The notes: generated by a model not told the origin, from the letters alone. Numbered from the stretch's first letter, positions 39,185 through 64,000 are shown. The stretch is DNA of 64,000 nt from an uncultured Dehalococcoidia bacterium (GCA_964565775.1 CAZMGB010000006.1:82941-146940); one strand, 5' to 3'. Program-made: numbers and translations.

Positions 39185-40345
39185 CTAGGCCACGCCGAAG
39201 TGAGCGCGGTTCCACTTCCGCCCCTCGTCGAGCATGGCGAGGAAGTTCTGCCGGGGAATGTAGTTGGCAGGGGTGTTGCCTGTGCTGAGGCAGTAGCCGG
39301 TGCCTTTGGCGGCGCAGACCGCCAGGATTTCGCGGGTGCGCTGGCGTACGTGCTCCTCGCTCCCCCGCGCCAGATCGTCCATGTCCACGCCTCCGAGAAT
39401 GGTGACGCGGTCTCCCCAGCGACGATAGACCTCCTCCACCGGCATGATCTTGTCCTCGAAGGAGTGCTTGGCGTCGATGCCAAGGTCTATGAGTTCGTCC
39501 ATGATCGTCTCCAGATTGCCACAGGAGTGGAGGAGGAAGGGCTTACCGGCGGCATGAACGATCTCGACGAGACGCTTGTGGTGGGGAAAGATGTACTTGC
39601 GGAGCACAGCCGGCGAGACGAGCGTGCCCGTGGCAAAGCCCATGTCGTCGCCCAGGAAGACCATGCCTACGTTGTCGACGGTGACTGCGTGAGCGACAGC
39701 GGCCGCCGTGAGCTCGCCCACTTTCTGGGAGATCGCCTCAATGAGCTCAGGCTGATCGGCCAGCGCGAAGGAGAAGGACTGCAGCCCCATCAGCCACGAG
39801 GTGTTTTCGAAGATGCCGCCGAAGTTCACGCAGATCTTCATTCCCTCGGGCACGACCGCGTTGAGGTACTCTATCGCGCCGTATCTGATCTCCTCCGGCT
39901 TCTGCCAGGGGTAGGCCTCGAAGTCGGCCCAGCTCTGGATGGGCCCGGTGCTCTCGTCCTGCCAGAACCGACTGCCGCCGGGCCAGTTTCCGAGGGCCGC
40001 GGTATCCGCCGCCACGCCGAAGTTGGCGCGTGGGAAGTTGAGGCCGGTCCACGTGTACACGTAGTCGTAGCCGCTCTCATAGCAGAAGCGAAGGGTGAGA
40101 TCGATGGCTGCACGGCCCCTGAGTGTGCGTGACGGCGAGGTGCGGTCGCCCCCGTCGCCGGCAAGAGCGAGTTCGTCCCAGGTGAACTTCTCGCCTAGGA
40201 CCGCTTCGATCATGCCCGGATCGGCGAACAGCTCGACGAACGGGACGGGGCCGGGAGGGCCCTGCCGGAACAGGGTGCGGCGCAAATTGTTGAAGTTGGG
40301 CTGGCGTTTCACCCGGAACCGCGGGCCGTTCGGTGCAGCTTTCAT
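39185..40345 (-). CDS. URO-D-family methyltransferase (MtaA/MtbA/CmuA-like methylcobamide methyltransferase)
   Basis: 386 aa. The URO-D fold has the Zn/thiol-activating motifs HSCGN and GYCLSTGN. It is an inverted paralogue (about 65-70% aa identity by eye) of the gene at 43661..44791. Confidence 0.75.
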   Translation of the reverse strand: MKAAPNGPRFRVKRQPNFNNLRRTLFRQGPPGPVPFVELFADPGMIEAVLGEKFTWDELALAGDGGDRTSPSRTLRGRAAIDLTLRFCYESGYDYVYTWTGLNFPRANFGVAADTAALGNWPGGSRFWQDESTGPIQSWADFEAYPWQKPEEIRYGAIEYLNAVVPEGMKICVNFGGIFENTSWLMGLQSFSFALADQPELIEAISQKVGELTAAAVAHAVTVDNVGMVFLGDDMGFATGTLVSPAVLRKYIFPHHKRLVEIVHAAGKPFLLHSCGNLETIMDELIDLGIDAKHSFEDKIMPVEEVYRRWGDRVTILGGVDMDDLARGSEEHVRQRTREILAVCAAKGTGYCLSTGNTPANYIPRQNFLAMLDEGRKWNRAHFGVA

Positions 40346-41483: not shown

Positions 41484-41756
41484 CCTATTTCAGCGATACC
41501 ACGGATTGCAGTCAAGTCACATGCCGAGCCCGCATTGTTCGAGTGCCCGGCTCACTTGGGCTCGCTCCCCCTGAGGAGGTTGTGGGCGGCGTGGTAGACG
41601 GCACAGGCGCAGACACGCGGGGCCGGCCACGTTCCGTTGTTCCTGTCTGCGCCGTCCGTTTGGCACTTGCCCAAGCGCGGACGACATAGCACAATTGCGC
41701 TCGACAATTGCGGGAGCGCCCGAGAGGGTCCATTTTCGGCGGGAGAGCCTCTGTCC

Positions 41757-42926
41757 ATGGGAAACGGCGCCGTACCCATAAGCCGCGAGCCTCGGTACAA
41801 GGAGGTCATCGCCCGCTGGGAGGCGTTCTGGTCGCTTGAGGACGTGGGCCAGCCTCTGTGGATGGTCCCCACGCACCCCGTTCTCACCGCCACCGCGACT
41901 GGCCACGTCCCCATGCGGCCCTTGCTCCAGGACCGGGAGACGCAGCTCAACGCTCAGGTGGGACTGCTCCGGTGGCGCGAGTCCGTCGACCTGGGAGACG
42001 ACTTCGTACCACATCTTCAGGCCCACCAGGGGGTCACGGTCTTTGCCTCGGCGTTCGGCTGCGAGGTCGAATACTTCGACCACACGCTGCCCTGGGCCCA
42101 CCCCGTGATCAGACCTGAAGACCCGCCGGAGAAGGTCTACGAGCTGCCATCTCCCGCGATCACCGACGGCCAGCTCGGCACGATCCTTGAGTGGGGAGAC
42201 TACTTCGTCGAGCGAACGGAAAGACGCTACGCTCTGGCGGTGACCGACCTTCAGGGCCCTCTGGACAGCTCCTACCTGGTCTGGGAGCCGATGGCGTTCA
42301 TGGTCGCCATGAACACCAACCCCAGGGAAGTGCACCACCTGATGCGCCTGATGACCGACCTGATCATCGCCTTCGTCAAGGAGCAGCGCTCGCGCGTGCC
42401 CGAGTTCATGGCCTGCCACTTCCCGCCCGTCTGGCTTCCCGACGGAAGCGGCATCAGTATGAGCGACGACTGCCTGGCCGTCCTCAGCCCCGCCCTCTAC
42501 GAGGAATTCGTTCTGCCTTATGTCAACGAGTTCTCCGACGAGTTCGGGGGTGTGTTCATCCACTCCTGCGGGAACTTCATGCATCAGCTCAACAACCTCG
42601 AAAAGGTGCACAACCTGCGAGGCCTGAACTTCGAGGCGTCGGAGATGCCCTTCGAGGCCGTATGGGAACGCTTTGGCGGCCGGACGGCCATAGTAGTCCA
42701 CCGGGGCCTCAACAAGCAGATCCACTTCGATTCAGAGGCTGACTACGTGCGGCACGTGCTGCGGGTCAAGACCCACGACCGCGGCCTCTGCGTGTTGGTG
42801 TATCCGCCCGCGACGCGGAGGACGGCGCCTGACAGTCATGCCTCCGCCGCGATCTCCGGGACGGAGGCGGTGTCCCTGATGGATTTCGTTGGGCAAATGC
42901 GCGAGCTTCTGGCCCCTGTTCGCTGA
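41757..42926 (+). CDS. URO-D-family protein (corrinoid methyltransferase-like), paralogue 2
   Basis: The ORF starts at TTG 41637. An ATG at 41757 with a GGGAGAG RBS is the likely start. URO-D-like HSCGN motif; about 390 aa. Confidence 0.65.
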   Translation: MGNGAVPISREPRYKEVIARWEAFWSLEDVGQPLWMVPTHPVLTATATGHVPMRPLLQDRETQLNAQVGLLRWRESVDLGDDFVPHLQAHQGVTVFASAFGCEVEYFDHTLPWAHPVIRPEDPPEKVYELPSPAITDGQLGTILEWGDYFVERTERRYALAVTDLQGPLDSSYLVWEPMAFMVAMNTNPREVHHLMRLMTDLIIAFVKEQRSRVPEFMACHFPPVWLPDGSGISMSDDCLAVLSPALYEEFVLPYVNEFSDEFGGVFIHSCGNFMHQLNNLEKVHNLRGLNFEASEMPFEAVWERFGGRTAIVVHRGLNKQIHFDSEADYVRHVLRVKTHDRGLCVLVYPPATRRTAPDSHASAAISGTEAVSLMDFVGQMRELLAPVR

Positions 42927-43660: not shown

Positions 43661-44791
43661 ATGCAGCACCAACCTGACTTCGAGAACCTTCGCCGGACGA
43701 TCCTCCGCCAGGGTCCGCCGGGCCCCGTGCCCTTCTTCGACCTGTTCGCCGACCCGGGCATGGTTGAGGCCGTGCTGGAGGAGAAGTTCCCCGTAAACCT
43801 GCACCGCTACATCGAAGAGCCCACCCTGGAGTTTCCCGAGGATGAGCTGCTGGGTCTGATGAAGTCAATCGAGATGTACGTCCGCTTCTGCCGCGAGGTG
43901 GGCTACGACTACGTGTTCATGGTGACGGGCTTCAGCCTTCAGCGAACCTTCCAGGCCGCCGCCGACACCGCCACAGCCGAGAACTGGCCCGGTGGTCAGC
44001 GCTACTGGCAGGATGAGAGCACCGGCCCGATCCAGAGCTGGGCGGACTTCGAGGCCTATCCCTGGCCCAAGGCCGAGGATCTGAACCACGCAGCGCTCGA
44101 GTACGTCAACGCCATCTTGCCGGAGGGGATGAAGATCGCGGCATTCATGTACGGCGGCATCTTCGAGCACTCTACCTGGCTCATGGGCCTGCAACCCTTC
44201 TCTTTCGCTCTCCGCGACCAGCCCGACCTGATAGAGGCGATCTGCCAGCGAGTGGGCGAGCTCGCCACAGCCACCTGCGCCCAGGCCGTCACCATTGACA
44301 ACGTCGACATGGTGTTCCTCAGCGATGACCTTGGATTCTTCAGTGGCACCCTCGTTTCGCCGGACGTGATCCGTCGCTACATCCTCCCCCATTACAAGAA
44401 GATCACCGACACTGCGCACCAAGCCGGCAAGCTGCTCGTCTTCCACTCCTGCGGGAACATGTACAAGCTAATGGACGACCTTGTCGACGACGTCGGCATC
44501 GACGCCAAGCACTCGTTCGAGGACAAGATCGTGCCCGTGGAGGAGGCCTGCCGTCGCTGGGGTGACCGGGTCGCGATCCTGGGTGGAGTGGACATGGACG
44601 TGCTCGGTCGGGGCACGGAAGAGCAGGTTCGGGCTCGCACCCGTCAAATCCTGGAGGTCTGCGGAGTCAAAGGCACCGGCTACTGCCTGGGCAGCGGCAA
44701 CACGGCCGCTAACTACATCCCAAAGCAGAACTACCTGGCCATGCTGGACGAGGGGCGTCGCTGGAACCGAGAGCATTTCGGGGCGGGCTAG
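43661..44791 (+). CDS. URO-D-family methyltransferase (MtaA/MtbA/CmuA-like), paralogue 3
   Basis: 376 aa. Same motifs as 39185..40345 (HSCGN, GYCLGSGN). GGAGG RBS. Confidence 0.75.
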   Translation: MQHQPDFENLRRTILRQGPPGPVPFFDLFADPGMVEAVLEEKFPVNLHRYIEEPTLEFPEDELLGLMKSIEMYVRFCREVGYDYVFMVTGFSLQRTFQAAADTATAENWPGGQRYWQDESTGPIQSWADFEAYPWPKAEDLNHAALEYVNAILPEGMKIAAFMYGGIFEHSTWLMGLQPFSFALRDQPDLIEAICQRVGELATATCAQAVTIDNVDMVFLSDDLGFFSGTLVSPDVIRRYILPHYKKITDTAHQAGKLLVFHSCGNMYKLMDDLVDDVGIDAKHSFEDKIVPVEEACRRWGDRVAILGGVDMDVLGRGTEEQVRARTRQILEVCGVKGTGYCLGSGNTAANYIPKQNYLAMLDEGRRWNREHFGAG

Positions 44792-45836: not shown

Positions 45837-47021
45837 ATGAAGGAGTCGCAGGCCATGCTCCCCCGGGAGCGCGTCCTCACGGCGCTTAACCACGAAGAGC
45901 CCGATCGCGTCCCCATCGACCTGGGCAGCACGAGGGTCACCGGCATCTGCCTGGACGCCTACGAGGGGCTCCGTGATGCCCTGGGCCTGGGCCAGCGCGA
46001 GCTGCGGGTGGTGGACCGCAGCCAGGGACTGGCCGGACCGGACGAGGACGTGCTGGAGGCGCTGGGCGTCGACTTCCGGCCGGTGTGGACGAACCCGCCT
46101 TCGGGCGGCGAGCCACCCGTTGCTCAGGAGGGGGAATACGAAGTCTACTTCGACGAGTGGGGCTGTCGACGGAGCCGCCCCCGCTCGGGCGGCCTCTACT
46201 TCGATATGACCGAGCCGGCCATAATGGAGCCCAGCATGGAGGCCCTGGAGAAGTTCCGCTGGCCTGACGTCGACGACTCCGCGCGCTACGAAGGGCTGCG
46301 CGGGCTGGCGCAGCGCCTTCGCGAGGAGACGTCCTACGCTCTGGTCGGCCACTGCGATTTCGGCCACGATATGCTGGGGTCCTTCCTCAACGTGCGCGGC
46401 TACACGGAGGCGATGCTCGACCTGGCCGCCCACGCGGACTTCGTCGAGGCATTCATGGAGGGGGCAACGCGACTGGCCCTGCGGGCCTGGGAGCACTTCC
46501 TGGAGCAGGTGGGCGAGCTGGTGGACGTGGTGCTCTGCTACGACGACCTGGGCATGCAGGACCGCCCCCTCATCTCACCCGCGATGTACCGGCGACTGAT
46601 CAAGCCCTACCACGGCCGCGTCATCGCCGCCATCCACAAACGCACCCCGGCGAAGGTGTTCTTCCATACCGACGGCGCCGTGGCCGAGTTCATTCCCGAT
46701 TTCATCGAGATAGGCGTAGACATCCTTAACCCTGTGCAGGTATCGGCGGCCGGCATGGAGGATACGGGCGCCCTCAAGAGGCGCTATGGCAAGAACCTGG
46801 TCTTCTGGGGCGGGGCCTGCGACTCCCAGAGGGTTCTCCCCTTCGGAAGCCCGGAGGACGTCCGGCTCGAGTCGCGACGTCGCATCGCCGACCTGGCGCC
46901 GGGGGGAGGCTTCGTCTTCGCCCCCGTCCACAATATTCAGTGCGACGTTCCGGGCGAGAACACTCTCGCTTTCTTCCAGAGCGCGCGGGAGGCCGGCCGC
47001 TACCCGGTCGCCGGCCCCTAG
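45837..47021 (+). CDS. URO-D-family protein (corrinoid methyltransferase-like), paralogue 4
   Basis: 394 aa. N-terminus PRERVLTALNHEEPDRVPIDLG is typical of the MtaA/URO-D family; URO-D fold. Confidence 0.65.
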   Translation: MKESQAMLPRERVLTALNHEEPDRVPIDLGSTRVTGICLDAYEGLRDALGLGQRELRVVDRSQGLAGPDEDVLEALGVDFRPVWTNPPSGGEPPVAQEGEYEVYFDEWGCRRSRPRSGGLYFDMTEPAIMEPSMEALEKFRWPDVDDSARYEGLRGLAQRLREETSYALVGHCDFGHDMLGSFLNVRGYTEAMLDLAAHADFVEAFMEGATRLALRAWEHFLEQVGELVDVVLCYDDLGMQDRPLISPAMYRRLIKPYHGRVIAAIHKRTPAKVFFHTDGAVAEFIPDFIEIGVDILNPVQVSAAGMEDTGALKRRYGKNLVFWGGACDSQRVLPFGSPEDVRLESRRRIADLAPGGGFVFAPVHNIQCDVPGENTLAFFQSAREAGRYPVAGP

Positions 47022-49677: not shown

Positions 49678-50751
49678 ATGGCAAATTCCGAATCGCCCCT
49701 GCAAGCGTACCTGAAGCCCGTTCCCACGCCACCGGGCGTCAGCAGCCGCGAGATCGTGCGCCGCGCCGTTGAGTTCGACGACCCGCCACGCATACCGTAC
49801 AGCTTCATCCAGCCGCTGGAGTCGGACTTCGTGGAGCTGGCGGTAGTCACCCCCAGCCGCATCGAGATGTCGAACGTCCCGAAAGGAGAGTTCATCGTCG
49901 ATGAGTGGGGCGTGGGAGTGCGCAGCTCGGGGACGAGCTGGGGCCACGCCGAATCGCATCCGCTGGCGGACCTCAACGCCCTGGACGGCTACAGCTTCCC
50001 CGACGTCACGAACCGCGAGCGCTTCCAGGCGGCAGCGGGGCTGGCGAGGGCGGGCGACGCAGCCGGCAAGTACGTCGTCGGGGCGGACCCGATCCTGGGC
50101 ATCGAGCGCCTGCGGCTGCTCGTCGGCTTCGACAACCTCATGGTGGCGCTGTACACGGAGCGTTCGCAACTCGACCGCCTGATCGACAGGCTGGTGGACA
50201 TGACGCTTGAGGTCGTGCGGATGTACGCGGACATGGGCAACGTACACGGCTTCATGACCTGGGAGGACTGGGGCCTCCAGACCACGCTCCAGATCAGGCC
50301 GGCGCAGTGGCGCGAGATCTTCAAGCCGCGCTACTCACGCATCGTCCAGGCCACGCACGCCGCCGGCATGCACTACCTCTTCCACTGTTGCGGCCAGATC
50401 CTGGACATCATTCCGGACCTCATCGAGATCGGCGTCGACGTGCTCCAGCTCGACCAGCCCCGGCTCATGGGCGTGGACCACCTCGCAGACGAGTTCGGGG
50501 GCAAGATCTGCTTCTGGAACACGGTGGACATCCAGTGGTCGCCCGACCCTGAAGTCACGCTCGATGAGCTGAGAGCCGAAGTCAAGCACATGGTGGGTGC
50601 CTTTGATCGATTCGGCGGAGGCTTCATCGCGCGGCAGTACCCCCAACCCTGGGACATCGGCATGCCTCGCGAGAAGCACCAGGCGATCTACGAGGCGTTC
50701 ATGGAATACGGCTGCGGCCTGCGCCCGGAGCCCGGCGAGGCCGGAAGCTAG
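49678..50751 (+). CDS. URO-D-family protein (corrinoid methyltransferase-like), paralogue 5
   Basis: 357 aa URO-D-like fold with an HCCGQ motif. Confidence 0.6.
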
Positions 50752-50772: not shown

Positions 50773-51903
50773 ATGGCACCGAAGCAAGAGATGACCCCAC
50801 GGGAGCGGCTGCTGGCCGCCCTCCGTCGCCAGCCCTGCGACCGCGTCCCCTTCACGCCGCTGGTGGAGGGCTACTTCCAGCTATCACTGCCCGACGGGCG
50901 GACGCGACACATCGCCGACCTCCAGTACGAGATGTCGGGCCACATGCTCGTCCGGGCGGGGGTGCTGCGCATCAACACGCCCCTCTGGCTGGGCGCGACC
51001 GCCACGGACCTGGCGGCTGGCGTCGAGCAGCGGGCGTCGACCGTAGACGGCGACATCATCCACACCGTAGAGACCCCCGTCGGCAGCTTGACGTGGCGCC
51101 TCCGCTTCGCGCCCGAGAGTCCCTACATCCCCTGGGTCATCGAAAACCGCATCCGCACCGTCGAAGACATCAGGACGTTCCAGTACCTCATCGAGCGGAC
51201 GACGTTCGAGCTCGACACGCGCTACTTCGAGAGCCAGACGTCCTACGTCGGCGACCGAGGGATCGTGGCCATCCTGGGACCGACCTCCCCTCTCCAGCAG
51301 ATGATCAACTTCGAAATGGGGCTCGAGCGCGTGATCTACATGCTGGCCGACCACCCGGACGAGATGCACGAGATGCTGGACGCCTACCACGCCAAGCAGG
51401 CCGCAATGTGGCGTCTCATGGCCGAGGTGCCGGCCGAGGTCGCCTTCGTCCACGACAACCTGTCCAGCACCACAACCTCGCGCCCCATGTACCGCACCTA
51501 TGACCGGCGTTATGTCAATGAGTACGCGGACATATTGCACGCCAGCGGCAAGACCTTCCTCACCCACTGGTGCGGCAAGCTCACCGGCTTCGCGAAAGAC
51601 GTCGCCGAAGCGCGCCAGGACGGCATCTCAGACGTTACGCCGCCGCCAACGGGCGACCTCGACATCATCGAGGCGCGCCGCACCTGGGCCAAGCGGTTCG
51701 TCCTGCTCGGAGGGATCGACCCGACGCTCTTCGCCCTGGGCACGCCTCAGAAGATGGAGGCCTACGTAACCGACCTGCTGGAGCGGATGGGGCCGGACCG
51801 ACGCGGCTTCATACTCGGCAGCGGCGACGCCGTCCCCTACGGCACCCCGGCCGAGAATCTCCGCGCGGCCGCCGACACGGCCGCCCGCTTCCCCGTGGCG
51901 TGA
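50773..51903 (+). CDS. URO-D-family protein (corrinoid methyltransferase-like), paralogue 6
   Basis: 376 aa. N-terminus PRERLLAALRRQPCDRVPF is the family signature. The motif is THWCGK. Confidence 0.65.
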   Translation: MAPKQEMTPRERLLAALRRQPCDRVPFTPLVEGYFQLSLPDGRTRHIADLQYEMSGHMLVRAGVLRINTPLWLGATATDLAAGVEQRASTVDGDIIHTVETPVGSLTWRLRFAPESPYIPWVIENRIRTVEDIRTFQYLIERTTFELDTRYFESQTSYVGDRGIVAILGPTSPLQQMINFEMGLERVIYMLADHPDEMHEMLDAYHAKQAAMWRLMAEVPAEVAFVHDNLSSTTTSRPMYRTYDRRYVNEYADILHASGKTFLTHWCGKLTGFAKDVAEARQDGISDVTPPPTGDLDIIEARRTWAKRFVLLGGIDPTLFALGTPQKMEAYVTDLLERMGPDRRGFILGSGDAVPYGTPAENLRAAADTAARFPVA

Positions 51904-55798: not shown

Positions 55799-55975
55799 CT
55801 AGAGGTAGCCGTAGGTGGGATCTAGCCGTCGACGCAGCTCGTTCTCGTCTTCGGGACGCCCCGCCAGCGCCGACTGCATCCTCTCCAGCTACCGGCGCTC
55901 GATCCTGGACAGGGTGAGAAGAGAGGCGTCCGGAACCTCGCGGATCAAGTGGGTCGCCGCCCGCTTCCCGGTGAG
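55799..55975 (-). pseudogene. C-terminal remnant of an MtaB paralogue (59 codons, internal stop)
   Basis: It reads LTGKRAATHLIREVPDASLLTLSRIERR*LERMQSALAGRPEDENELRRRLDPTYGYL*, against the 58756..60165 C-terminus AATLIREAVDASLLSLSKAECRWLDRIQSSLASLPEDEEELRERVAPTCGHLYDPASYAL. DNA similarity is about 75%. It lies in frame immediately 3' of the PLP-enzyme gene stop. Confidence 0.55.
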
Positions 55976-57169
55976 CTAGCCAAGCGCCTGATCCAGGTCG
56001 GCGATGAGGTCCTCAGCGTCTTCCAGCCCGATGCTGATGCGCATGATCCCCTCGCCCACCCACTCGCGTATCGCCTTCTTCTGCTCGGCGCTCAGATACG
56101 CAGCGCTGTCCACGTAGAGGTCAGTGGGGTAGTAGAACATCAGGCTCTGGTAGTCGCCCAGCGACGTGGCATAGGTGAAGACGCGCACCTGCTGGACAAG
56201 ACCCATCGCCGTCTCCATGTCCGTCTGCGCGACGACCATGCCGCCGAAGCCCGACATCTGGCGCCGCACCAGGTCGGGCTGGGGGTGGCTCTCCAGGCCG
56301 GGGTAGAGGACGCGCCCGATCTTCGGATGCTGTTCGAGGAAGCGAGCCACCGCCAGCGCGCTCTCCTCATGCTTCTGCATCCGCAGCGATAGGGTGGCGA
56401 TGCCGCGATTGATGAGCCAGGCGTTGAACGGGCTCATGGCGCCGCCGAGATGGATCAGCATGCCCTCGCGGATTCGCTGGATGCCTTCTCGGGCTCCCAG
56501 CACGATCCCGCCCAGAGCGTCGCCGTGCCCGCCGAGGTACTTCGTCATGCTGTGGAGGACGAAGTCCGCCCCGAGGGCCAGCGGCTTCTGCAAGACCGGG
56601 GTGGCGAACGTGCTGTCGACTACGAGCGGCGCGCCTGCCTGGTGAGCGATGTCGGCGACGGCGGCGATGTCGGTCAGGCGAAGGATGGGGTTGGCAGGGG
56701 TCTCGATGTACACAAGCTTGGTGTCAGGACGAACGGCATCGCGCACAGCCTTCACGTCGCTCGTGTCCACCAGGCTCACGTCGATGCCGTAGCGGCCGGC
56801 GTGCAGCCCGAACAGCTCCGAGCTGCCCGCGTAGCATACGTCGCTCGCCACCAGGTGCTCGCCGGCGCCGACGAAGGTGAGCAGCAGGGCGGAGACGGCC
56901 GCCATGCCCGAGGCGAACGCGACGCCCGCGTCGGCGCCCTCAAGCGCAGCCATCTTCTCCTCGAGCGTGCGCAGCGAGGGGTTGCTCCAGCGGGTGTAGA
57001 CGTGCGGCGGCCGCTCTCCCCTGAGGAAGAGCGCGTCCATCAGGAGCGGGCCCGGCTCGGGCAGCTTGAAGGTGGTCGTCATGTGGATCGGCGGCGTTAC
57101 GGAGCCCGTAGTGGGGTCCGGCTCCTGACCGGCGTGGACGGCCTGCGTATCGAATCGGTACTCGCTCAT
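55976..57169 (-). CDS. Cys/Met-metabolism PLP-dependent enzyme (methionine gamma-lyase / cystathionine gamma-synthase / O-acetylhomoserine sulfhydrylase family)
   Basis: 397 aa. The PLP-lysine region HSMTKYLGGHGD is present, and the family-typical N-terminus FDTQAVHAGQ. Confidence 0.85.
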   Translation of the reverse strand: MSEYRFDTQAVHAGQEPDPTTGSVTPPIHMTTTFKLPEPGPLLMDALFLRGERPPHVYTRWSNPSLRTLEEKMAALEGADAGVAFASGMAAVSALLLTFVGAGEHLVASDVCYAGSSELFGLHAGRYGIDVSLVDTSDVKAVRDAVRPDTKLVYIETPANPILRLTDIAAVADIAHQAGAPLVVDSTFATPVLQKPLALGADFVLHSMTKYLGGHGDALGGIVLGAREGIQRIREGMLIHLGGAMSPFNAWLINRGIATLSLRMQKHEESALAVARFLEQHPKIGRVLYPGLESHPQPDLVRRQMSGFGGMVVAQTDMETAMGLVQQVRVFTYATSLGDYQSLMFYYPTDLYVDSAAYLSAEQKKAIREWVGEGIMRISIGLEDAEDLIADLDQALG

Positions 57170-57224
57170 ACCGCTTTCCCCCTTTTCGCCGAAGTGTCGG
57201 CGCGACGGATGTCGCTCCGCTTCT

Positions 57225-58688
57225 CTACTCCTCCCACTCGGCGGCCTCGAAGTCGGCCACGGTGCGCTTCCTGACCATGCTTACGTAGTCCAGGAGCTCC
57301 CTCTCCACAGACGGGTCCAGCTCGCGCCGCTGGTGACGCGCCAGGAGCTCTCGCACCCGCTCCCGCGCCAGGTCCAGCGCCGTCTTCGACCCCTTGCTCT
57401 CCCATACCTCCCGGCTGTCCCTCCGCAGCAACTTCGGAAGGAAATGCTCGCGCCGGAAGTGCTCGGCGGTGTGCGGCTCGGCCAGATAGTGGCCCTGCCA
57501 GCCCACCTGCTTGATCAGGTCGAGAGCGATGGTGTCTTCGCTCACGTCGACGCCACGCGCCAGTCGGAGCATGAGCCCGCACAGCTCATCGTCCAGCACG
57601 AGCAGGGGATGGCTCTCGGTAGTCGTGGATTCGAGCGCCCCACCGCAGGTGATGAAGTGCACCCCTGCCAGGACCGCCGGCATCAGCGTGCTGGCCCGCT
57701 CCAGCATGCACTGGAGGTCCAGCGTCTTGGCGTCAGTGGTGCCACCCACGCCTCGACAGGGCAGGCCATAGTGACGGGCCAGTTGGGCCGCGCCGGCGGT
57801 GATGAGGCCCGTCTCCACCGCGCCGAGCGCCACGTTGCCGGTCGCCATGTCGGCGAGCGTCGACACGGTGCCGTAGAGCACCGGCGTGCCCGGGGCGATG
57901 ATCTGGGCCAGGGTGATGTGGGCCAGGATCTCGGCGTTCTGCTGGGCGAGCAGTCCGGCCAGAGTGGCGGGAGCGGTGGTGCCGGCCATTGCCTCCGGTG
58001 ACATCGCCATCGGCTGGCCGTACTCGGCGAAGAGGAACATGCCCTCGAGCTGGAGGTTGATCATCTGGAGGGGGCTCATGACCGAGCAGATGCCGAAGAA
58101 GCGGGGTCGCTTCTTCAGCTCCTCCTTCCCGCCCACGGCGATCGCCATCATCCGCATCATGTCCTCGCTGGCCATCACCCCGTAGCACCCCATGCCGAAC
58201 GACTTGCGACAGTTCTGGGCCCAGGCAAGTATCGCTTCGACGTGGATGGTGGTCATTGGTATGTCGGTCGGCCAGATGTCCATCTGGCTGTTGTTGATAT
58301 GATCGAGGCCGTCGATCAGGCGGAGGTGGTTACGCACGTCCTCGAGGGTGGTGGGCCGGAGCTCACCCGTCTCCGTATCGAAGATCCTCGTCGGGGTGCC
58401 GAGCGCCGCGAAGTTCACCCGGTCGCTGCCGATCTCCAGACGCACGTCCGGGTCGGACCCGTAAAGCGTGAACTGCTTCGGCGCCTGCTCGACGGCCCGA
58501 CGCACCAGCTCCTCCGGTATGCGCACCGAGCGGGCCGCCTCATCCACATCCGCCCCCGCCTCCCGGAAGGCGTCCCTCGCCCTCTTGAGGTTCACGCGAA
58601 GGCCCACGCTCTCCAGGATGCTCATCGAAGCAGCGTCGATCTGCTCGACTTCCGCGGGACTAAGGACTTCGAAGTACGCTGGTTTCAT
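57225..58688 (-). CDS. MttB-superfamily (trimethylamine/quaternary-amine:corrinoid) methyltransferase, non-pyrrolysine type
   Basis: 487 aa. N-terminus FEVLSPAEVEQIDAASMSILESVGLRV is typical of MttB/MtgB-family proteins. The continuous ORF has no in-frame amber, so it is the non-Pyl clade. Confidence 0.75.
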   Translation of the reverse strand: MKPAYFEVLSPAEVEQIDAASMSILESVGLRVNLKRARDAFREAGADVDEAARSVRIPEELVRRAVEQAPKQFTLYGSDPDVRLEIGSDRVNFAALGTPTRIFDTETGELRPTTLEDVRNHLRLIDGLDHINNSQMDIWPTDIPMTTIHVEAILAWAQNCRKSFGMGCYGVMASEDMMRMMAIAVGGKEELKKRPRFFGICSVMSPLQMINLQLEGMFLFAEYGQPMAMSPEAMAGTTAPATLAGLLAQQNAEILAHITLAQIIAPGTPVLYGTVSTLADMATGNVALGAVETGLITAGAAQLARHYGLPCRGVGGTTDAKTLDLQCMLERASTLMPAVLAGVHFITCGGALESTTTESHPLLVLDDELCGLMLRLARGVDVSEDTIALDLIKQVGWQGHYLAEPHTAEHFRREHFLPKLLRRDSREVWESKGSKTALDLARERVRELLARHQRRELDPSVERELLDYVSMVRKRTVADFEAAEWEE

Positions 58689-58755
58689 GTCGCCACCTCA
58701 TGGGTATTAGAGACGCCTGGCGCCTTCCGACAGGGTGAAGCGGGCCTGGCCGACG

Positions 58756-60165
58756 TCAGAGCGCGTAGCTCGCCGGGTCGTACAGGTGACCGCAGGTAGG
58801 GGCGACCCGTTCGCGCAGCTCCTCTTCGTCCTCCGGGAGGCTCGCAAGGCTCGACTGAATTCTGTCCAGCCACCGGCACTCGGCCTTGGACAGAGACAGG
58901 AGAGAGGCATCGACAGCCTCGCGGATCAAGGTGGCCGCGGCGATGCCGGCCGTGACCGTACGGTGATAGTCGTCCTGCTCCCTCACGATGGCGGAGCCGA
59001 TGGCGACGGCCGCTTCCGGCGAGAGCACCAACGCCTGGGGGCTCCCGTACGCGTCAGAGGAAACGAACAGGTCGCGCAACATCTTCTCCTGCCCCCGCTG
59101 GAGCGCCGCGTTCATGAGCCGGCAGTCGTAGACCAGCAGCTCGGCGAAGACCTCGGGCGCAGAGCCCGACAGCAGAGGCACGTGCTGGACCGACTCGTTG
59201 CTCCAGAGGTCGCACATGCTGGCGGCGATGTTGCCCACGGGGCTGAAGTGGGCGCAGGCGGCCGATTTGCCCTCCATTGAGATCGGGCAGCCGGTGATCG
59301 CCTTCAGGACTGGGCCCTCATACGCGCAGTCCTTCGAAGGGCCGACCGCCCCATGCTCGAATGCGATGAGGGAGCGGGCGGCGCCCATCGCGCGAACGAC
59401 CGCCGCCAGCGTCTCCGGCAGCAACCTCTGGTGCGCGAGCTGCATGGCGGTGTTGGCGAAGCCGCAGGCGCTGTCACCGCCGGGCAGGACTGAGCGGGGC
59501 TCGGCGATCGACGCGATCTCGTCCCAGAGCCAGGCCATGTCTCGCGCGGCCAGAACGCCAAGCGCAAAGACGATCCCCTCGATGTCGCCGCTCAGCAGCG
59601 CCTCGTCAGATACCTCCTTGCCGCCGATCGACTCGATAGAGAGGACGTGTGCGCCGGCCTCGGCGCAGAGCACGAGCGACTCACGAACGGCATCCCAACC
59701 AGCGCCGGCTCTCAACTGGGGCGGCCGGCAGTCGGTCCGCACGTCCACCGGCGTGACGCGCAGGGCGCAAGGCAGCCCCGTCGCGGCGTGAGCGTCGCCG
59801 AGCACTCGGACGAGCCGCTGCGTTATCTCCGCGCCCCAGTCGGGGCTTTCGGTCATCGGCGGCAGATGCTCGAACTCGATGACGAGGCCGGGGGCGTGCA
59901 AGGCCGTGGCGCGAGCGACCACCGCCCGCGCCGTCTCCTCGTAGATGCGCAGCGTCTCGGCCCGCGTCGACGCGTCCAGCGTCATCACCGGAAGGGTGAA
60001 GTTGACCTCGGGGTAGACGGCGCCAGCACCGATGCGAAGCCCAAGTCCGCAGTCCACCGGCTTCGGCGCCCGGCCAAACACGAGCTCTTCCGGGTCATCG
60101 ACAGAGAGGGAGGTATAGCGCAAAGTCCGATTCAGCCCATCCAGCGTTCCGTCAGCGCATGCCAT
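58756..60165 (-). CDS. mtaB: Methanol:corrinoid methyltransferase MtaB homologue
   Basis: 469 aa. It is collinear with archaeal MtaB and matches across the sequence: YTSLSVDDPEELVFG, LRIGAGAVYPE, SIESIGGKEV, FEHGAVGPSKDCAYE, ITGCPISMEGKSAACAH, DLWSNESV, LVYDCRLMNAAL. Its start overlaps the upstream permease by 14 nt. Confidence 0.85.
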   Translation of the reverse strand: MACADGTLDGLNRTLRYTSLSVDDPEELVFGRAPKPVDCGLGLRIGAGAVYPEVNFTLPVMTLDASTRAETLRIYEETARAVVARATALHAPGLVIEFEHLPPMTESPDWGAEITQRLVRVLGDAHAATGLPCALRVTPVDVRTDCRPPQLRAGAGWDAVRESLVLCAEAGAHVLSIESIGGKEVSDEALLSGDIEGIVFALGVLAARDMAWLWDEIASIAEPRSVLPGGDSACGFANTAMQLAHQRLLPETLAAVVRAMGAARSLIAFEHGAVGPSKDCAYEGPVLKAITGCPISMEGKSAACAHFSPVGNIAASMCDLWSNESVQHVPLLSGSAPEVFAELLVYDCRLMNAALQRGQEKMLRDLFVSSDAYGSPQALVLSPEAAVAIGSAIVREQDDYHRTVTAGIAAATLIREAVDASLLSLSKAECRWLDRIQSSLASLPEDEEELRERVAPTCGHLYDPASYAL

Positions 60166-61033
60166 GGCCGAACGGGTCGACCACGTCCCGCACCGCCTCC
60201 GCCAGCAGGTTCGCCCCCAGGATGGTCAGGCTGAGGGCAAGTCCCGGGAAGATCGCGAGCCACGGGGCATGCTGGAAGTAGTCCCGGGCGTTGCCGCTCA
60301 GGTCGGCGCCCCAGGACGGGTTCGGCGGCGGCACACCGAGGCCCAGGAAGCTCAGCCCCGCTTCGGCCATGATGGCGCCGCCCAGGGCTACGCTGGCGAG
60401 TATTCCAGCCAGCGGGAACACCGACGGCAGGAGATGGCGAAAGAGAATGCGCGTGTTGGAGGCGCCCACGGAGCGGGCGGCCTCTATGTACGGCAGCTCC
60501 TTCTCCGCCAGGACGATGGAACGGACGATGCGCGACATGAAGGGCGCCATCACTATCCCGATGACCAGGATGACGTTCTGCACGGAGGCGCCCACGGCGG
60601 CCACGATCACGAGCAGCAGGATGAGGAGCGGGAACGCCAGGATCACCTCGACCAGCCTCTGGATGAGATAGTCTATTGAGCCGCCGAAGTAGCCGGAGAC
60701 GACGCCGATAAGGCAGCCGCCCAGCACGCCGATGGTCACGGCCGCGAAGCCGATGCCCAGCGATATGCGTGCGCCGTACACCACACGCGAGAAGACGTCG
60801 CGGCCCAGCAGGTCAGTCCCGAAGGGATGCGAGAGGCTGGGCCGCTCCAGCGCCGGTGCATTCTGCGAAAGAGGGTCGCTGGGGGCGATGAGCGGCGCGC
60901 CAAGAGCGACCAGTCCCAGCAGCACCAGGAGCGCCACGCCTGCCACTCCCATCAGGTGACGCCGGAGGAGCAGCCGCGGCTGCCACAGGCGCCGCGCCGG
61001 CTGCATCGCGAGGGCAACCTCTGCGTCAGCCAT
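60152..61033 (-). CDS. ABC transporter permease (DppC/OppC/NikC-type)
   Basis: 293 aa with six TM helices. EAA-loop EAARSVGASNTRILFRHLLP. It overlaps the upstream permease by 8 nt. Confidence 0.85.
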   Translation of the reverse strand: MADAEVALAMQPARRLWQPRLLLRRHLMGVAGVALLVLLGLVALGAPLIAPSDPLSQNAPALERPSLSHPFGTDLLGRDVFSRVVYGARISLGIGFAAVTIGVLGGCLIGVVSGYFGGSIDYLIQRLVEVILAFPLLILLLVIVAAVGASVQNVILVIGIVMAPFMSRIVRSIVLAEKELPYIEAARSVGASNTRILFRHLLPSVFPLAGILASVALGGAIMAEAGLSFLGLGVPPPNPSWGADLSGNARDYFQHAPWLAIFPGLALSLTILGANLLAEAVRDVVDPFGHGMR

Positions 61034-61985
61034 GTCTCCCTCCCGTCAGGCGCACCCGCGGGTCGAGCCAGGCGTAGGCGAGGTCGATCATCAGAGACAT
61101 GACCACGAAGACGACCGCAGCGTACAACGCCATCACCTGAATGACGGGGTAGTCCCTGGCAGTCACCGACTCCAGCATCAGACGGCCAAGGCCGTTGATG
61201 GCGAATACCTGCTCGATGATGACCGTGCCACCCATAAGGGTTGCGACCTCCAGGCCGAGGATGGTGACCACGGGCAGCATGGCATTGCCCAGGGCGTGGC
61301 GTCGCATCACCACACGCTCCTCCAGACCCTTGGAGCGAGCCGTCCGAATGTACTCGGAGTTCAGCACGCCCAGGAGGCCCCCGCGGACGATCCGCGCCAG
61401 CCCGCAAGCGGAGGCGAACCCCAGTACCAGGGCGGGGGGCCCGTACTCTCGCAGGTTGTCCCAGGGGTTTTCGAAGAAGGACACGTGCCGGAAGGGCGGC
61501 GCGTATGAGAAGAAGATGGACGGAAGCAGGATGACCAGAGTGGCGGTCCAGAACGTCGGCACAGACATGCCGAAGATGCTCACCCCGCGCAGGATACCGT
61601 CTGCGGGCCGGCGGTGATTCATGGCCGCCAAGACGCCAAACGCCAGCCCAAGCAGGATTGTGACGCCCATAGTCATGATCAGTAGCTCGCCGGTGATCGG
61701 CAGCCGATCGAGGAGCTCGCTGGCGACGCTACGGTCCCGTATGTAGGAGTCTACCAGGTCGCCGCGCACGACGCCGCCCACCCAATCGACGTACTGCTCC
61801 ACGAGCGGCCTGTCGATGCCGAACTCGTGCTCCAGCTCCTGGACCTGCTCCGGCGTGGCGTTCGGTCCCAGCATGAGCTGCGCGACGTTGCCGGGCATGA
61901 TGCGCACGAGGGCGAATACGACGATGGAGACGCCGATGAGGATGGGTACCAGAGCTGCCAGTCGCCGGATGATGTAGCCTATCAC
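61026..61985 (-). CDS. ABC transporter permease (DppB/OppB/NikB-type)
   Basis: 319 aa. N-terminus MIGYIIRRL, and the EAA-loop region TARSKGLEERVVMRRHALGNAMLPV. Confidence 0.85.
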   Translation of the reverse strand: MIGYIIRRLAALVPILIGVSIVVFALVRIMPGNVAQLMLGPNATPEQVQELEHEFGIDRPLVEQYVDWVGGVVRGDLVDSYIRDRSVASELLDRLPITGELLIMTMGVTILLGLAFGVLAAMNHRRPADGILRGVSIFGMSVPTFWTATLVILLPSIFFSYAPPFRHVSFFENPWDNLREYGPPALVLGFASACGLARIVRGGLLGVLNSEYIRTARSKGLEERVVMRRHALGNAMLPVVTILGLEVATLMGGTVIIEQVFAINGLGRLMLESVTARDYPVIQVMALYAAVVFVVMSLMIDLAYAWLDPRVRLTGGRHG

Positions 61986-62015: not shown

Positions 62016-63620
62016 CTACGCCTTGTCGATCCAGTAGTCGTACTTGTAGAGGCCGAAGCCATAGGCCGTGGGCGTGTATCCCTTGATATAGTCGTAGGCG
62101 CACCAGTATCCGTACGGTTCGTAGAGCACCAAGGTGGGCCCGTGACGCTTCAGAATCAGCCGCTGCACATCGCGGGCCAGCTTAATCCTCTCCGTGTCGT
62201 CAATCGTCTCATGGATCTGGTCGAGAAGGGCGTCAACCTCGGGATCCTCGACTCCCTTGAAGCCTTCCGGCGTGCGACCCCACCCGAGGCTGTGATGCCA
62301 CTGGAGCTGGATATCGTCTGAGAGATAGGCCAGGTGTGAGTACGTGGTCGTCTCGTAGTTGGTGGCCAGCAGGTCAGCCAGCCACGCGCCGAGCTCCTCG
62401 GCCCGCAGGTGGACCCCGACGCCGATGTCGGCCATGTTCTGCTGGATGATAGCCGCACGGTCGGCGGTGGTGCCGAGATCGGTGAAACTGAGCTCGAAAC
62501 TCAGGTCTTCGGCGCCGGCGGCAGAGAGCAGTTGCTTGGCCTTTCCCACGTCTCGCACGTAAGCCGCCTCTATCTCCTCCGCCGGAAGGGACGAATCCCA
62601 GAGGGGGCCCACGGGGCCCGCTAGCTCGGCGCCGCCGAAGTGCAGCTTGTCGATCATGCCCTTGCGGTCCAGCCCCAGGTCGATGGCCTCGCGCACTCGT
62701 TCGTCCTTGAACGCCTCCACCCTGACGCCGTTCAGCTCGAAGACAGCATATGGACGGCTGAGGTAGGACTGTACGGTCACACCGCTGACGTCCTTCACCG
62801 CGTCCGCCTTGAGCTTGTCTGCGGCGTTGTAGACGTCGAGGCTTCCGGCACGAAAGGCGACCTGAACGGCCGCATCATCCGGCATTACCTTAACGCCGAT
62901 GCCGCCGATGTACGGGTACTCGTGGTAGTAGATGGGATTCCGCACCACATCGAGGCCCTCATCGCGGCCGTACTTGGCGAGCATGAAGGGCCCGCTGCCG
63001 ATGGCGTTGGACTTCAGGTCGCCGAACTGCTCGACCGCCTCACTGGGGACGATCGCCGTCATCGGGCTGCCCATCGTCATCAACGTGTAGCCGTATGGCT
63101 TCTTCGTGCGCAGGGTGAAGGTCACGGCGTCGGGAGCCTCGTACTTCTCCGCGATCTGATCCCACTCCCCCGTGGCGCCGGGCAGGCTTCTCAGCCGGTC
63201 AATGCTGTAGACGATGTCCTCGGCCACGAGATCGCGGCCGTTAGCGGGGGCGATGTCCTGAAAGCGGACGCCGCCGCGAAGGTGGAATATCCACTCCAGC
63301 TCGTTTACGACCTCCCATGATTCGGCAAGGTCGCCGACGGTGCCCTGCCAGTCGGTCGCATGGACTACATAGCTGTAGAAGTAGACCGCGACCGAAACGC
63401 CCTCGGTAGTGTGGGGATCGAGGCTGAGAACGGGCGCGAGGGAGGCGAGGTGAATCGTGCCGCCGCGCTTCGGCGTCCCCTCAGCGGTCCCGACAGCCTG
63501 AGGAGTCGCTGGCGCCTCCTCCCCCTCCTGGCCGCCGCCGCAACCGGCCACGGCCAGCCCGGCAGCCGCCAGCGTTCCTCCCAGGAAGCCACGCCTGGAA
63601 AGCCTTGCCCTGCGCAACAT
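62016..63620 (-). CDS. ABC transporter substrate-binding protein, family 5 (peptide/nickel/opine type), TAT-exported lipoprotein
   Basis: The ORF extends to 63683, but an ATG at 63620 has a GGAGGA RBS 5 nt upstream. The resulting N-terminus MLRRARLSRRGFLGGTLAAAGLAVAGC is a TAT motif plus lipobox. SBP_bac_5 fold. Confidence 0.8.
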   Translation of the reverse strand: MLRRARLSRRGFLGGTLAAAGLAVAGCGGGQEGEEAPATPQAVGTAEGTPKRGGTIHLASLAPVLSLDPHTTEGVSVAVYFYSYVVHATDWQGTVGDLAESWEVVNELEWIFHLRGGVRFQDIAPANGRDLVAEDIVYSIDRLRSLPGATGEWDQIAEKYEAPDAVTFTLRTKKPYGYTLMTMGSPMTAIVPSEAVEQFGDLKSNAIGSGPFMLAKYGRDEGLDVVRNPIYYHEYPYIGGIGVKVMPDDAAVQVAFRAGSLDVYNAADKLKADAVKDVSGVTVQSYLSRPYAVFELNGVRVEAFKDERVREAIDLGLDRKGMIDKLHFGGAELAGPVGPLWDSSLPAEEIEAAYVRDVGKAKQLLSAAGAEDLSFELSFTDLGTTADRAAIIQQNMADIGVGVHLRAEELGAWLADLLATNYETTTYSHLAYLSDDIQLQWHHSLGWGRTPEGFKGVEDPEVDALLDQIHETIDDTERIKLARDVQRLILKRHGPTLVLYEPYGYWCAYDYIKGYTPTAYGFGLYKYDYWIDKA

Positions 63621-64000
63621 CAACGTCCTCCATTCTCGCGAGCCGTCGCCCACTCGTGGCTGAATGGCTGTCTCCGCCGCCACCTACGGCCTGTATAGCG
63701 CGCGAAGGCGTGCCCTAACTAGAGCCGATTGGCAGGTCTTTTGTATCCTGCGGGATAGGCCCGGACGCGTGAGTTCGAAGACAGCCCGAAACCCGTTGGA
63801 TCGGAATCAGGCTGGCAGGACTGTTGCCTGATGCCAAGAGCTGACGACGGCGCGCCCGGAGACGCGCCGTCCAGCGGTGGCGGCCCAACTCTTGTCCCGA
63901 TGGGGAGCTGCGGAGCACAACGCCAAAGGGGGCGTGCAGCAGCACCTACTCGACCGGACAACAGCATGTCCGACCGAAACCGACCAGAAGGCGCGGCGAC

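Follow-up and report, generated by a model that had tools for sequence, protein, structure and literature searches.

The MtaB-family, MttB-family and pyridoxal phosphate (PLP)-dependent genes of an uncultured, high-GC Dehalococcoidia bacterium from soil or sediment form part of a corrinoid-dependent (B12) island for methyl transfer of ∼25 kb (39–64 kb in the window, the 64-kb stretch of DNA analyzed here), which probably hands the methyl groups of imported compounds on to homocysteine. Comparative genomics shows the MttB-family and PLP genes to be an old, self-contained two-gene module, usually accompanied by a transporter. The window is free of N runs and even in G+C content, and the genes on its minus strand between 55976 and 63683 are, in order:

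62016..63683, minus strand: ABC substrate-binding protein (SBP_bac_5; PF00496, 193 bits), with a Tat signal; first gene of the operon
61026..61985, minus strand: Opp/Dpp/Nik-type ABC permease, B type (PF00528, PF19300)
60152..61033, minus strand: Opp/Dpp/Nik-type ABC permease, C type (PF00528, OppC_N)
58756–60165, minus strand: MtaB-family substrate:corrinoid methyltransferase (MT1), 469 aa (PF12176, 542.5 bits)
57225–58688, minus strand: non-Pyl MttB-superfamily methyltransferase (MT1), 487 aa (PF06253, 386 bits)
55976–57169, minus strand: Cys/Met-metabolism PLP enzyme, gamma-family (Cys_Met_Meta_PP), 397 aa (PF01053, 410 bits)

Intergenic spacing fits a single operon that includes the three upstream ABC-importer genes (30 nt from the substrate-binding protein gene to the first permease gene, −8 nt between the permease genes, −14 nt to the MtaB-family gene or +28 nt if the latter starts at TTG, 67 nt to the MttB-family gene, 55 nt to the PLP gene, and 464 nt from there to the next gene). 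The MtaB, MttB and PLP trio had been assigned to one operon in the original prediction, and this was borne out, with all three genes on the minus strand and devoid of internal stops; the start given there, 55799, lies 177 nt past the end of the PLP gene. Profile matches are far from chance for each member of the trio (E = 1e-162 for PF12176, 2e-115 for PF06253, and 9e-123 for PF01053). No ATPase gene follows the C-type permease gene, and the solved relatives of the substrate-binding protein, which are remote and bind diverse ligands (nickel, peptide, opine), do not point to its ligand. The permease-permease-MtaB order is kept in three other loci (L003, L004, and L006) and may imply a substrate larger than methanol, since methanol requires no ABC importer. 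The MtaB-MttB junction was seen solely in this window. A promoter and terminator scan gave no signal exceeding shuffled expectation, and with regard to riboswitch control, an Rfam search of the window found only a tRNA.

Membership of the 469-aa protein in the MtaB family, also claimed originally, was confirmed by the PF12176 match, which spans residues 16 to 455 of 469 (Pfam cut-off 25), and by collinearity with Methanosarcina barkeri MtaB (PDB 2i2x; 40% identity across 432 residues). All three zinc ligands of the proposed Glu/Cys/Cys site are present, E178/C234/C280 aligning with Glu164/Cys220/Cys269 (M. barkeri numbering), and are invariant in 34 clade relatives. An in-frame TTG at 60123 is the more likely start codon, because the resulting length of 455 aa matches that of most homologs. 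The clade is very large, bacterial and uncharacterized, with members in Dehalococcoidia, Acidobacteriota, Bacteroidota, Planctomycetota, NC10, and others. By analogy, the substrate would be methanol or another small O-methyl donor. MtaABC of M. barkeri shares the PF12176 fold family and an identical zinc site, and a corrinoid protein gene directly precedes MtaB in most bacterial relatives, as in mtaC-mtaB; bacterial versions of MtaABC exist in acetogens. In contrast to that system, the window MtaB lies downstream of ABC-importer genes, and its NCBIfam equivalog score (MtaB_Meth, NF040651) of 460.4 does not reach the cut-off of 720; in the nearest relatives, the genes that come before MtaB encode a reductive activator of corrinoid proteins (RACo) and a homocysteine methyltransferase, not an MT2 directed at CoM or THF.

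The MttB homolog lacks an amber codon, as had been noted: its sole stop codon is the terminal TAG, and Thr317 occupies the position of Pyl334 in 7xcl. Its score against the equivalog for the Pyl-type MttB, trimethylamine methyltransferase (TIGR02369), was 419.8 versus a cut-off of 525. The nearest solved relative is Desulfitobacterium hafniense MtgB (288 bits), with an arginine that aligns with Arg312, a residue which is invariant in 21 orthologs and which salt-bridges the acidic group of quaternary amines (PMC13080624). Three of four MtgB glycine-betaine contacts are changed in an alignment made by sequence only (Y97 to L, H348 to a gap, and F356 to T), which would rule out glycine betaine, the MtgB substrate, for this enzyme (PMC13080624). 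From family chemistry, an acidic onium compound other than glycine betaine is the predicted substrate. Similarity to the non-Pyl MttB superfamily (MtgB, MtcB, MtyB, MtpB, MthB) extends to PF06253, the absence of pyrrolysine, and retention of Arg312; in contrast to those enzymes, the ortholog group of 487-aa proteins to which the window MttB belongs is tied to a Cys/Met PLP enzyme and a GPH-type transporter.

The PLP gene had been described as a member of the methionine gamma-lyase/cystathionine gamma-synthase family, and the Cys/Met PLP family (PF01053) stands while the methionine gamma-lyase identity does not. The enzyme shares with methionine and canavanine gamma-lyases the PF01053 domain and the core of PLP Lys, Tyr, Arg, Asp, and Ser (Y58, R60, Y113, D185, K210 as the PLP lysine, S339, and R374), and its closest solved relatives are methionine gamma-lyases. 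The latter follow a motif rule of YGC (Cys116) and KD (Lys240-Asp241) (PMC11568061). In contrast, the window group has Gly for Cys115, Ile or Val for Lys239, and His for Asp240, such that YGC becomes YAG and KD becomes I/V-H (IH in the window). This pattern holds in all 124 orthologs (108 close and 16 distant), with the His invariant, and the absence of both motifs would rule out a canonical methionine gamma-lyase; the methionine-to-methanethiol step suggested originally was accordingly not upheld (PMC11568061), and the case for a route via methionine cleavage is weaker. No NCBIfam equivalog reached its cut-off for this enzyme (methionine gamma-lyase, TIGR01328: 390.4 versus 549.7). One ortholog carries the JGI label canavanine-gamma-lyase.

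Across loci, the PLP enzyme has its conserved partner in MttB and not in MtaB. Among the 28 metagenome loci that were informative, i.e., with at least 2.5 kb of sequence downstream of MttB, 19 linked MttB to the PLP gene, at MttB identities of 60 to 89%. Look-ups from the PLP side found MttB adjacent in three of three loci, with a spacing of 52 to 53 nt. The only recurrent neighbor was a GPH/MFS_2 transporter (14 occurrences in 19 loci); the corrinoid protein, RACo, and homocysteine methyltransferase were not nearby in most MttB-PLP loci, the last being missing from nearly all. An 844-aa protein, P0181, appeared to be an MttB-PLP fusion and was considered as Rosetta-stone evidence but was rejected as a true fusion, as the MttB C terminus is absent, ∼27 internal PLP-enzyme residues are missing, and the protein comes from a single 4.3-kb contig; it nonetheless shows MttB-PLP adjacency. 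A literature search on the MttB superfamily and methionine gamma-lyase returned no report of an MttB-superfamily protein paired with a Cys/Met-family PLP enzyme. Conservation of the pair well beyond this genome indicates that the predicted tie to sulfur-amino-acid chemistry is not due to chance.

That tie is also supported by the rest of the island, where a homocysteine S-methyltransferase of the MetH type and URO-D paralogs with His-Cys-Cys are encoded. One corrinoid protein, RACo, the homocysteine methyltransferase, and six URO-D paralogs lie 4 to 16 kb from the operon:

39185..40345, minus strand: URO-D/MtaA-like methyltransferase, His-Cys-Cys type; 63% identical paralog of 43661–44791
41637..42926, plus strand: divergent URO-D/MtaA-like protein, His-x-Cys...Cys (PF01208, 55 bits; HSCGN motif); MT2 candidate
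42953–43609, plus strand: corrinoid (B12-binding) protein (PF02310, PF02607); top NCBIfam match MtgC; DxHxxG at 98–103
43661..44791, plus strand: URO-D/MtaA-like methyltransferase, His-Cys-Cys type (PF01208; motif alignment)
45837..47021, plus strand: URO-D-family methyltransferase, His-x-Asp (O-type zinc site; motif alignment)
47031–48689, plus strand: RACo/RamA-type reductive activator of corrinoid proteins (PF00111, PF17651, PF14574; 2Fe-2S and ASKHA domain)
48686–49600, plus strand: stand-alone MetH-type homocysteine S-methyltransferase, HcyMT (PF02574, 230.9 bits); candidate MT2
49678..50751, plus strand: URO-D-family methyltransferase, His-x-Cys, third ligand not evident (motif alignment)
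50773..51903, plus strand: URO-D-family methyltransferase, His-x-Cys, third ligand not evident (motif alignment)

The corrinoid protein is the single one in the window and lies ∼15 kb from the operon, the distance originally given, 3.4 kb upstream of RACo, and directly downstream of the divergent URO-D-like gene at 41637..42926; an ORF on the opposite strand of the latter (41517–42725, minus) was discarded as spurious. RACo overlaps the start of HcyMT by 4 nt, consistent with translational coupling. HcyMT is closest to the Thermus MetH domain among solved Hcy domains (171 bits, versus 56 for BHMT and 35 for MmuM) and retains the zinc cysteines C221, C285, and C286.

In close relatives, these partners adjoin the MtaB, MttB, and PLP genes, which argues that the window holds one rearranged island. 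The closest relative (L001; MtaB identity 80%) has the order corrinoid protein, URO-D, RACo, HcyMT, MtaB, URO-D, URO-D, MttB, PLP, with a 7-nt gap between HcyMT and MtaB, and the same arrangement occurs in L002, L005, and L092; RACo, HcyMT, and MtaB follow one another without interruption in L001, L002, and L005. A further locus (L103) carries MttB, URO-D, URO-D, corrinoid protein, MtaB, a lyase, and PLP on a single strand. Of 84 MtaB loci, most have an ortholog of the corrinoid protein directly next to MtaB, and in L102, L145, and L163 such an ortholog adjoins MttB. The URO-D genes behave similarly: homologs of 41637..42926 adjoin the corrinoid protein, MttB, or MtaB in L001, L005, and L102–L108; homologs of 45837..47021 (32–36% identity) adjoin corrinoid protein-MtaB pairs in Acidobacteriota, where HcyMT homologs likewise lie in corrinoid clusters next to MtaB; the ortholog of 49678..50751 sits between MtaB and MttB in L001, L005, and L092; and that of 50773..51903 adjoins MtaB in L001–L006. 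The claim that a cognate corrinoid protein and an MT II are lacking holds only for the operon itself: in L001, L005, L092, and L103, the genes for RACo, HcyMT, URO-D, and the corrinoid protein adjoin those for MtaB, MttB, and the PLP enzyme.

The best reading of these data, which we hold by a narrow preference, is that several MT1 enzymes, each specific for its donor, charge one common corrinoid protein, from which the homocysteine methyltransferase removes the methyl group, with the MttB-PLP pair acting on an acidic onium substrate. From family chemistry, the MtaB-like and MttB-like proteins would be two such MT1 enzymes, each moving a substrate methyl onto Co(I) of the corrinoid protein (42953–43609), which RACo (47031–48689) would hold in reduced form. 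Gene linkage suggests that HcyMT (48686–49600) takes the methyl off methyl-Co(III) to yield methionine, and the Zn-thiol-type URO-D paralogs may unload methyl-Co(III) likewise. The MttB-PLP module has landed behind the ABC importer and MtaB in the window, where it may serve one imported substrate, MttB stripping the onium methyl and the PLP enzyme processing the amino-acid skeleton; S-methylmethionine-like compounds would be the simplest fit. The link between the module and a homocysteine acceptor comes from a few Dehalococcoidia loci.

Other readings were weighed against this one. Ordinary catabolic methylotrophy would have MtaB and MttB feed a corrinoid protein and then tetrahydrofolate through a pterin-binding MT2 encoded elsewhere, HcyMT being a split-MetH housekeeping module as in Ruegeria and Phaeobacter and the PLP gene an unrelated neighbor. 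D. hafniense (MtgABC) and R. pomeroyi (MtgBCDE) are known to have such an architecture (PMC12478193, PMC13080624), the 64-kb window is only part of a contig of at least 152 kb such that a pterin-binding MT2 could lie outside it, and URO-D paralogs with no assigned acceptor are present. We nonetheless regard this explanation as unlikely: no pterin-binding domain (PF00809) was matched among the scanned ORFs of the window, that family is absent from the recurrent neighbors of 19 MttB loci, RACo-HcyMT-MtaB forms a tight operon in the nearest relatives, and MttB-PLP conservation is too strong for neutral neighbors.

Two further explanations turn on the activity of the PLP enzyme. As an O-acylhomoserine sulfhydrylase or gamma-synthase, it would make homocysteine, or methionine from methanethiol, with MttB giving the methyl in a folate-independent methionine route. 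The enzyme scores almost as high against the NCBIfam models of O-succinylhomoserine sulfhydrylase (366) and cystathionine gamma-synthase (382) as against that of methionine gamma-lyase (390), the island holds a homocysteine methyltransferase, and a related URO-D enzyme uses methylcobalamin in vitro to methylate sulfide and selenide (PMC10418091). However, a housekeeping homocysteine synthase would be unexpected next to MttB in all three independent look-ups, and equally so in an operon with a dedicated importer, and nearly all MttB-PLP loci are without HcyMT, leaving this anabolic role quite improbable. More doubtful still is the idea, put forward originally, that the PLP enzyme is a methionine gamma-lyase giving methanethiol from which corrinoid methyltransferases harvest the S-methyl group. 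Its top solved relatives are consistent with this idea (Citrobacter methionine gamma-lyase, 359 bits), as are three URO-D paralogs with His-Cys-Cys, typical of S-/Se-methyltransferases (PMC10418091). It is opposed by the replacement of YGC and KD in 124 of 124 orthologs examined (PMC11568061), by the TIGR01328 score of 390 against 549.7, and by a conserved partner from the MttB family, the characterized members of which use quaternary amines, not thiols (PMC13080624).

The preferred reading, a corrinoid protein shared by several MT1 enzymes and unloaded to homocysteine, is reminiscent of Ruegeria, where an MttB-family enzyme and a stand-alone Hcy module make use of one and the same corrinoid protein (PMC12478193). 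The split MetH/MtgBCDE hub of Ruegeria pomeroyi and Phaeobacter inhibens resembles the island in its stand-alone PF02574 Hcy module, corrinoid protein, RamA/RACo activase, and MttB-family MT1 on one carrier (PMC12478193). It differs in that pterin-binding MtgD was not found in the window, that the island has additional MT1 types (MtaB and six URO-D paralogs), that HcyMT is translationally coupled to RACo here and to MtaB in relatives, and that the host belongs to the Chloroflexota rather than to the marine alphaproteobacteria. Type 1 mlp gene clusters, as presented in the available text of Kountz and Balskus (PMC10418091), resemble the island, which likewise has URO-D paralogs (some with His-Cys-Cys zinc sites), a corrinoid protein, RACo, and nearby sulfur-metabolism genes; that text describes them from obligate anaerobes, mainly Firmicutes, and does not list MtaB, MttB, or PF02574 genes as components.

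In soil, peat, and sediment metagenomes, MttB and MtaB genes are counted as markers of “anaerobic methylotrophy,” and for most bacterial members the substrate and methyl acceptor are not established. A MetH-type HcyMT in an operon with RACo and MtaB points to homocysteine (methionine) as an acceptor of methyl groups from methanol-type donors in Chloroflexota and, possibly, Acidobacteriota. The tightly conserved MttB-PLP(-transporter) module sets apart a subfamily of MttB whose substrate is new and probably amino-acid-like. Either of these two leads, if true, would extend the recently described link between betaine demethylation and methionine synthesis beyond marine alphaproteobacteria to abundant uncultured lineages of soil and sediment. 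A bolder and, in our estimate, unlikely proposal is that the transporter, the 487-aa MttB, and the YAG/IH-type PLP enzyme constitute a new pathway that demethylates an onium amino acid, with the PLP enzyme cleaving or rebuilding the C4 skeleton and the sulfonium S-methylmethionine as archetype, and that the Dehalococcoidia island also couples methanol-type donors directly to homocysteine. If true, S-methylmethionine would be the first S-methyl donor for the MttB superfamily, and the island would be a folate-independent, methanol- or onium-driven methionine synthase.

Six closely spaced genes lie on the minus strand at 55976-63683 of the window, which has a G+C content of ~66% throughout and contains no Ns. 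The original prediction described MtaB-, MttB-, and Cys/Met-metabolism PLP-family genes in this region, and each was matched by Pfam to the expected family:

62016-63683 (-): SBP_bac_5 binding protein with a Tat signal
61026-61985 (-): Opp/Nik-type permease
60152-61033 (-): Opp/Nik-type permease
58756-60165 (-): MtaB-family protein (542 bits)
57225-58688 (-): MttB-family protein (386 bits)
55976-57169 (-): Cys/Met-metabolism PLP enzyme (410 bits)

The importer part of this operon (60152-63683, -) consists of the binding protein and two permeases, and no ABC ATPase gene is present among the six. The same order of permease, permease, and MtaB was found in three relative loci (L003, L004, and L006), an arrangement that would be odd if the substrate of MtaB were freely diffusing methanol.

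The MtaB-family product, predicted as a 469-aa protein collinear with the Methanosarcina enzyme, indeed aligned with M. barkeri MtaB (PDB 2i2x) across 432 positions with 40% identity. Its start is probably an in-frame TTG at 60123, yielding 455 aa, a length typical of homologues. At the positions of the M. barkeri zinc ligands Glu164, Cys220, and Cys269 it has E178, C234, and C280, the E/C/C set that the prediction proposed to check, and none of the three varies across 34 aligned relatives. The NCBIfam score of 460 falls below the equivalog cut-off of 720, which was built on methanogen MtaB. The surrounding clade is very large: of the candidates scored, 5,936 match at E<1e-20, and species-representative genomes contain at least 582 confirmed loci. 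The closest relatives are encoded in Dehalococcoidia MAGs (82-83% identity), which assigns the source of the window to this class, while those at 51-67% identity derive from Acidobacteriota, Ignavibacteria, Bacteroidota, Planctomycetota, NC10, Roseiarcus, Calditrichia, and others. The presence of mtaB and mttB in Acidobacteriota and Chloroflexota is on record from MAG surveys that included no functional work (PMC11264602), and a literature search combining Dehalococcoidia and MtaB found no paper.

The MttB ORF ends in TAG and has no internal stop, as expected from the predicted lack of an amber codon, and Thr317 occupies the position of Pyl334 in the Methanosarcina enzyme (7xcl). Its nearest solved structure is D. 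hafniense MtgB. Glycine betaine is bound by Y97, R312, H348, and F356, of which R312 is conserved in all characterized family members and forms salt bridges with acidic substrates (PMC13080624). As assigned from pairwise profile alignments rather than structures, only R312 is kept in the window protein, with Y97, H348, and F356 replaced by Leu, a gap, and Thr, respectively; R312 is invariant among 21 MttB orthologues. The protein is thus a non-Pyl member of the MttB superfamily, and its most likely substrate is not glycine betaine but a different onium compound with an acidic group. The orthologue group is strikingly uniform, nearly all members being exactly 487 aa long and sharing 66-89% identity.

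The best solved relatives of the PLP enzyme are methionine gamma-lyases (Citrobacter, 359 bits), with cystathionine gamma-lyases and synthases close behind, and it scored below the cut-off of every NCBIfam equivalog. An alignment of 108 close and 16 distant orthologues to the Citrobacter protein showed that Y58, R60, Y113, D185, K210, S339, and R374, which comprise the lysine that binds PLP and the core residues, were kept. The YGC and KD motifs that define methionine gamma-lyase (PMC11568061) were replaced in these 108 and 16 orthologues by Y-A-G and I/V-H, the His being invariant. Judged by these motifs, the enzyme belongs to a distinct gamma-family subgroup. Some members of the family are known to act on different gamma-substituted amino acids; canavanine gamma-lyase is an example, and JGI gives that name to one orthologue.

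Linkage between MttB and the PLP enzyme extended well beyond the window. Among 80 metagenome loci retrieved by MttB patterns, 28 had at least 2.5 kb of downstream sequence, and in 19 of these MttB was followed on its own strand by a PLP orthologue (55-87% identity), at MttB identities spanning 61%-87%; direct adjacency was also seen on several shorter contigs. In the reciprocal direction, three long contigs picked as lying outside the MttB matches each had a 487-aa MttB gene 52-53 nt upstream of PLP (3/3), and no other methyltransferase genes were found near PLP on them. A census of 134 flanking ORFs at 19 loci revealed a single recurrent neighbor (14 occurrences), a GPH/MFS_2 transporter, which in more distant loci lies between MttB and PLP (L152, 11488-12849; L141, 11504-12946; L129, 6006-7370; and others). 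Among solved structures it most resembles the MFSD2A lysophosphatidylcholine symporters of eukaryotes (155 bits, versus 85 for MelB). The conserved unit is therefore MttB, PLP enzyme, and importer, and MtaB is a variable neighbor. In one subclade (71-79% MttB identity) PLP is mostly missing, and a URO-D gene (of the type at 41 kb) and a corrinoid protein gene are the neighbors instead. An apparent MttB-PLP fusion (P0181, an 844-aa metagenome protein designated methionine-gamma-lyase by JGI) lacks the MttB C terminus and ~27 residues of the PLP domain and probably reflects an artefact of assembly or deletion.

The nearest corrinoid protein to the operon was located at 42953-43609, ~15 kb away as originally predicted; it bears a DxHxxG motif and is the only B12-binding protein in the window. 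The same 39-52 kb region encodes six URO-D/MtaA-like proteins, a RACo-type activase, and a PF02574 protein of 304 aa, the start of which lies within the end of RACo (4-nt overlap). This last protein is nearest to the MetH homocysteine domain (171 bits, versus 56 for BHMT and 35 for MmuM), retains the three zinc cysteines, and is referred to here as the homocysteine methyltransferase. The zinc sites of the URO-D paralogues are His-x-Cys...Cys in three, a pattern of S-/Se-methyltransferases (PMC10418091), His-x-Cys only in two, and His-x-Asp in one. None of the ORFs scanned in the 64-kb window matched a pterin-binding domain, and Rfam detected no riboswitch, its only match being a single tRNA gene (26307-26378, -). 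One URO-D match (41637-42926, +) has a counterpart called in relatives; the opposite-strand ORF overlapping it (41517-42725, -) has neither and was rejected as a high-GC artefact. Between two URO-D genes, a 293-aa ORF (44889-45770, +) with no Pfam or NCBIfam match shows very weak likeness to the I-TevI GIY-YIG domain (E=0.23); it could represent the insertion of a selfish or nuclease-like gene, or be no gene at all. The URO-D cluster also holds a sulfotransferase-like gene (40560-41483, -), and a sulfatase gene directly follows MtaB at 11383-12855 in both L003 and L004; these neighbors may hint at sulfated methyl donors.

Gene calls in the retrieved loci were our own, from ORFs and tblastn. 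In the nearest long-contig relative (L001; GCA_034408935.1), the order is corrinoid protein, URO-D, RACo, homocysteine methyltransferase, MtaB, URO-D, URO-D, MttB, and PLP, with a 4-nt overlap between RACo and the homocysteine methyltransferase and a 7-nt gap from the latter to MtaB; a beta-helix gene follows PLP. Parts of this order are repeated in L002, L005, and L092, and one strand of L103 carries MttB, URO-D, URO-D, corrinoid protein, MtaB, a fumarase/aspartase-family lyase, and PLP. Since these relatives join the same genes, the two halves of the window cluster are one island, with gene order shuffled among close relatives. The MtaB-to-MttB junction occurs in the window alone, but no sign of misassembly was seen. 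In the wider MtaB clade the usual unit is corrinoid protein-MtaB; RACo and a His-x-Asp URO-D gene often come next, and a homocysteine methyltransferase homologue is sometimes close by. Two acidobacterial loci have a neighboring minus-strand operon (L053, 1809-7563, beside a second corrinoid protein-MtaB pair; L060, 3902-9856, beside MtaB) encoding a His-x-Asp URO-D, corrinoid protein, homocysteine methyltransferase, unknown protein of ~250 aa, MtaA-like protein (PDB 4ay7), and RACo, an arrangement suggestive of a corrinoid system directed to homocysteine in a phylum other than Chloroflexota.

Family membership, intact catalytic residues, and patterns of physical linkage are established for the island. 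Both MtaB and MttB would load the single corrinoid protein as substrate:corrinoid methyltransferases; in other loci, its orthologues adjoin either gene. RACo would reactivate this protein, the MetH-type enzyme would discharge methyl-Co(III) to homocysteine, and the Zn-thiol-type URO-D paralogues could be further enzymes unloading the methyl-corrinoid. The logic is that of the split-MetH/MtgBCDE hub demonstrated genetically in Ruegeria pomeroyi (PMC12478193), although the pterin-binding MtgD was not found in the window and the island has more donor types. The MttB-PLP module would treat one imported substrate in two steps, and that substrate would combine a methyl-onium group with an alpha-amino acid moiety and an acidic group; among known compounds, S-methylmethionine is the simplest match. 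The missing methionine gamma-lyase motifs argue against plain methionine cleavage as the second step. Possibly the PLP enzyme is instead anabolic, making homocysteine or methionine from O-acylhomoserine.

Elsewhere in the window, the region 51995-55511 (-) includes the ORF of a NosD/beta-helix protein (904 aa) that has a long linker rich in Thr and Pro; this ORF overlaps the preceding PD40-repeat ORF by 170 nt. Because PD40 repeats are common to both, a frameshift may have divided a single gene. A PBP1-type transglycosylase/transpeptidase gene is followed by that of a 1994-aa bacterial alpha-2-macroglobulin (1862-10272, +), a pairing known from other bacteria. A luciferase-like monooxygenase (16557-17579, -) and an HpaB-type 4-hydroxyphenylacetate 3-hydroxylase (31158-32585, +) suggest an oxygen-using lifestyle, which, if true, would place the corrinoid system outside the classical strict anaerobe.

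All of the protein families, and a shared corrinoid hub tied to methionine synthesis, were already known. Within the literature that could be searched, three features are new: conservation of the MttB-PLP(-transporter) module, the RACo-homocysteine methyltransferase-MtaB operon in Dehalococcoidia, and the size of the uncharacterized bacterial MtaB clade. The main value of these findings is that two problems, the substrate and the acceptor, become specific experiments.
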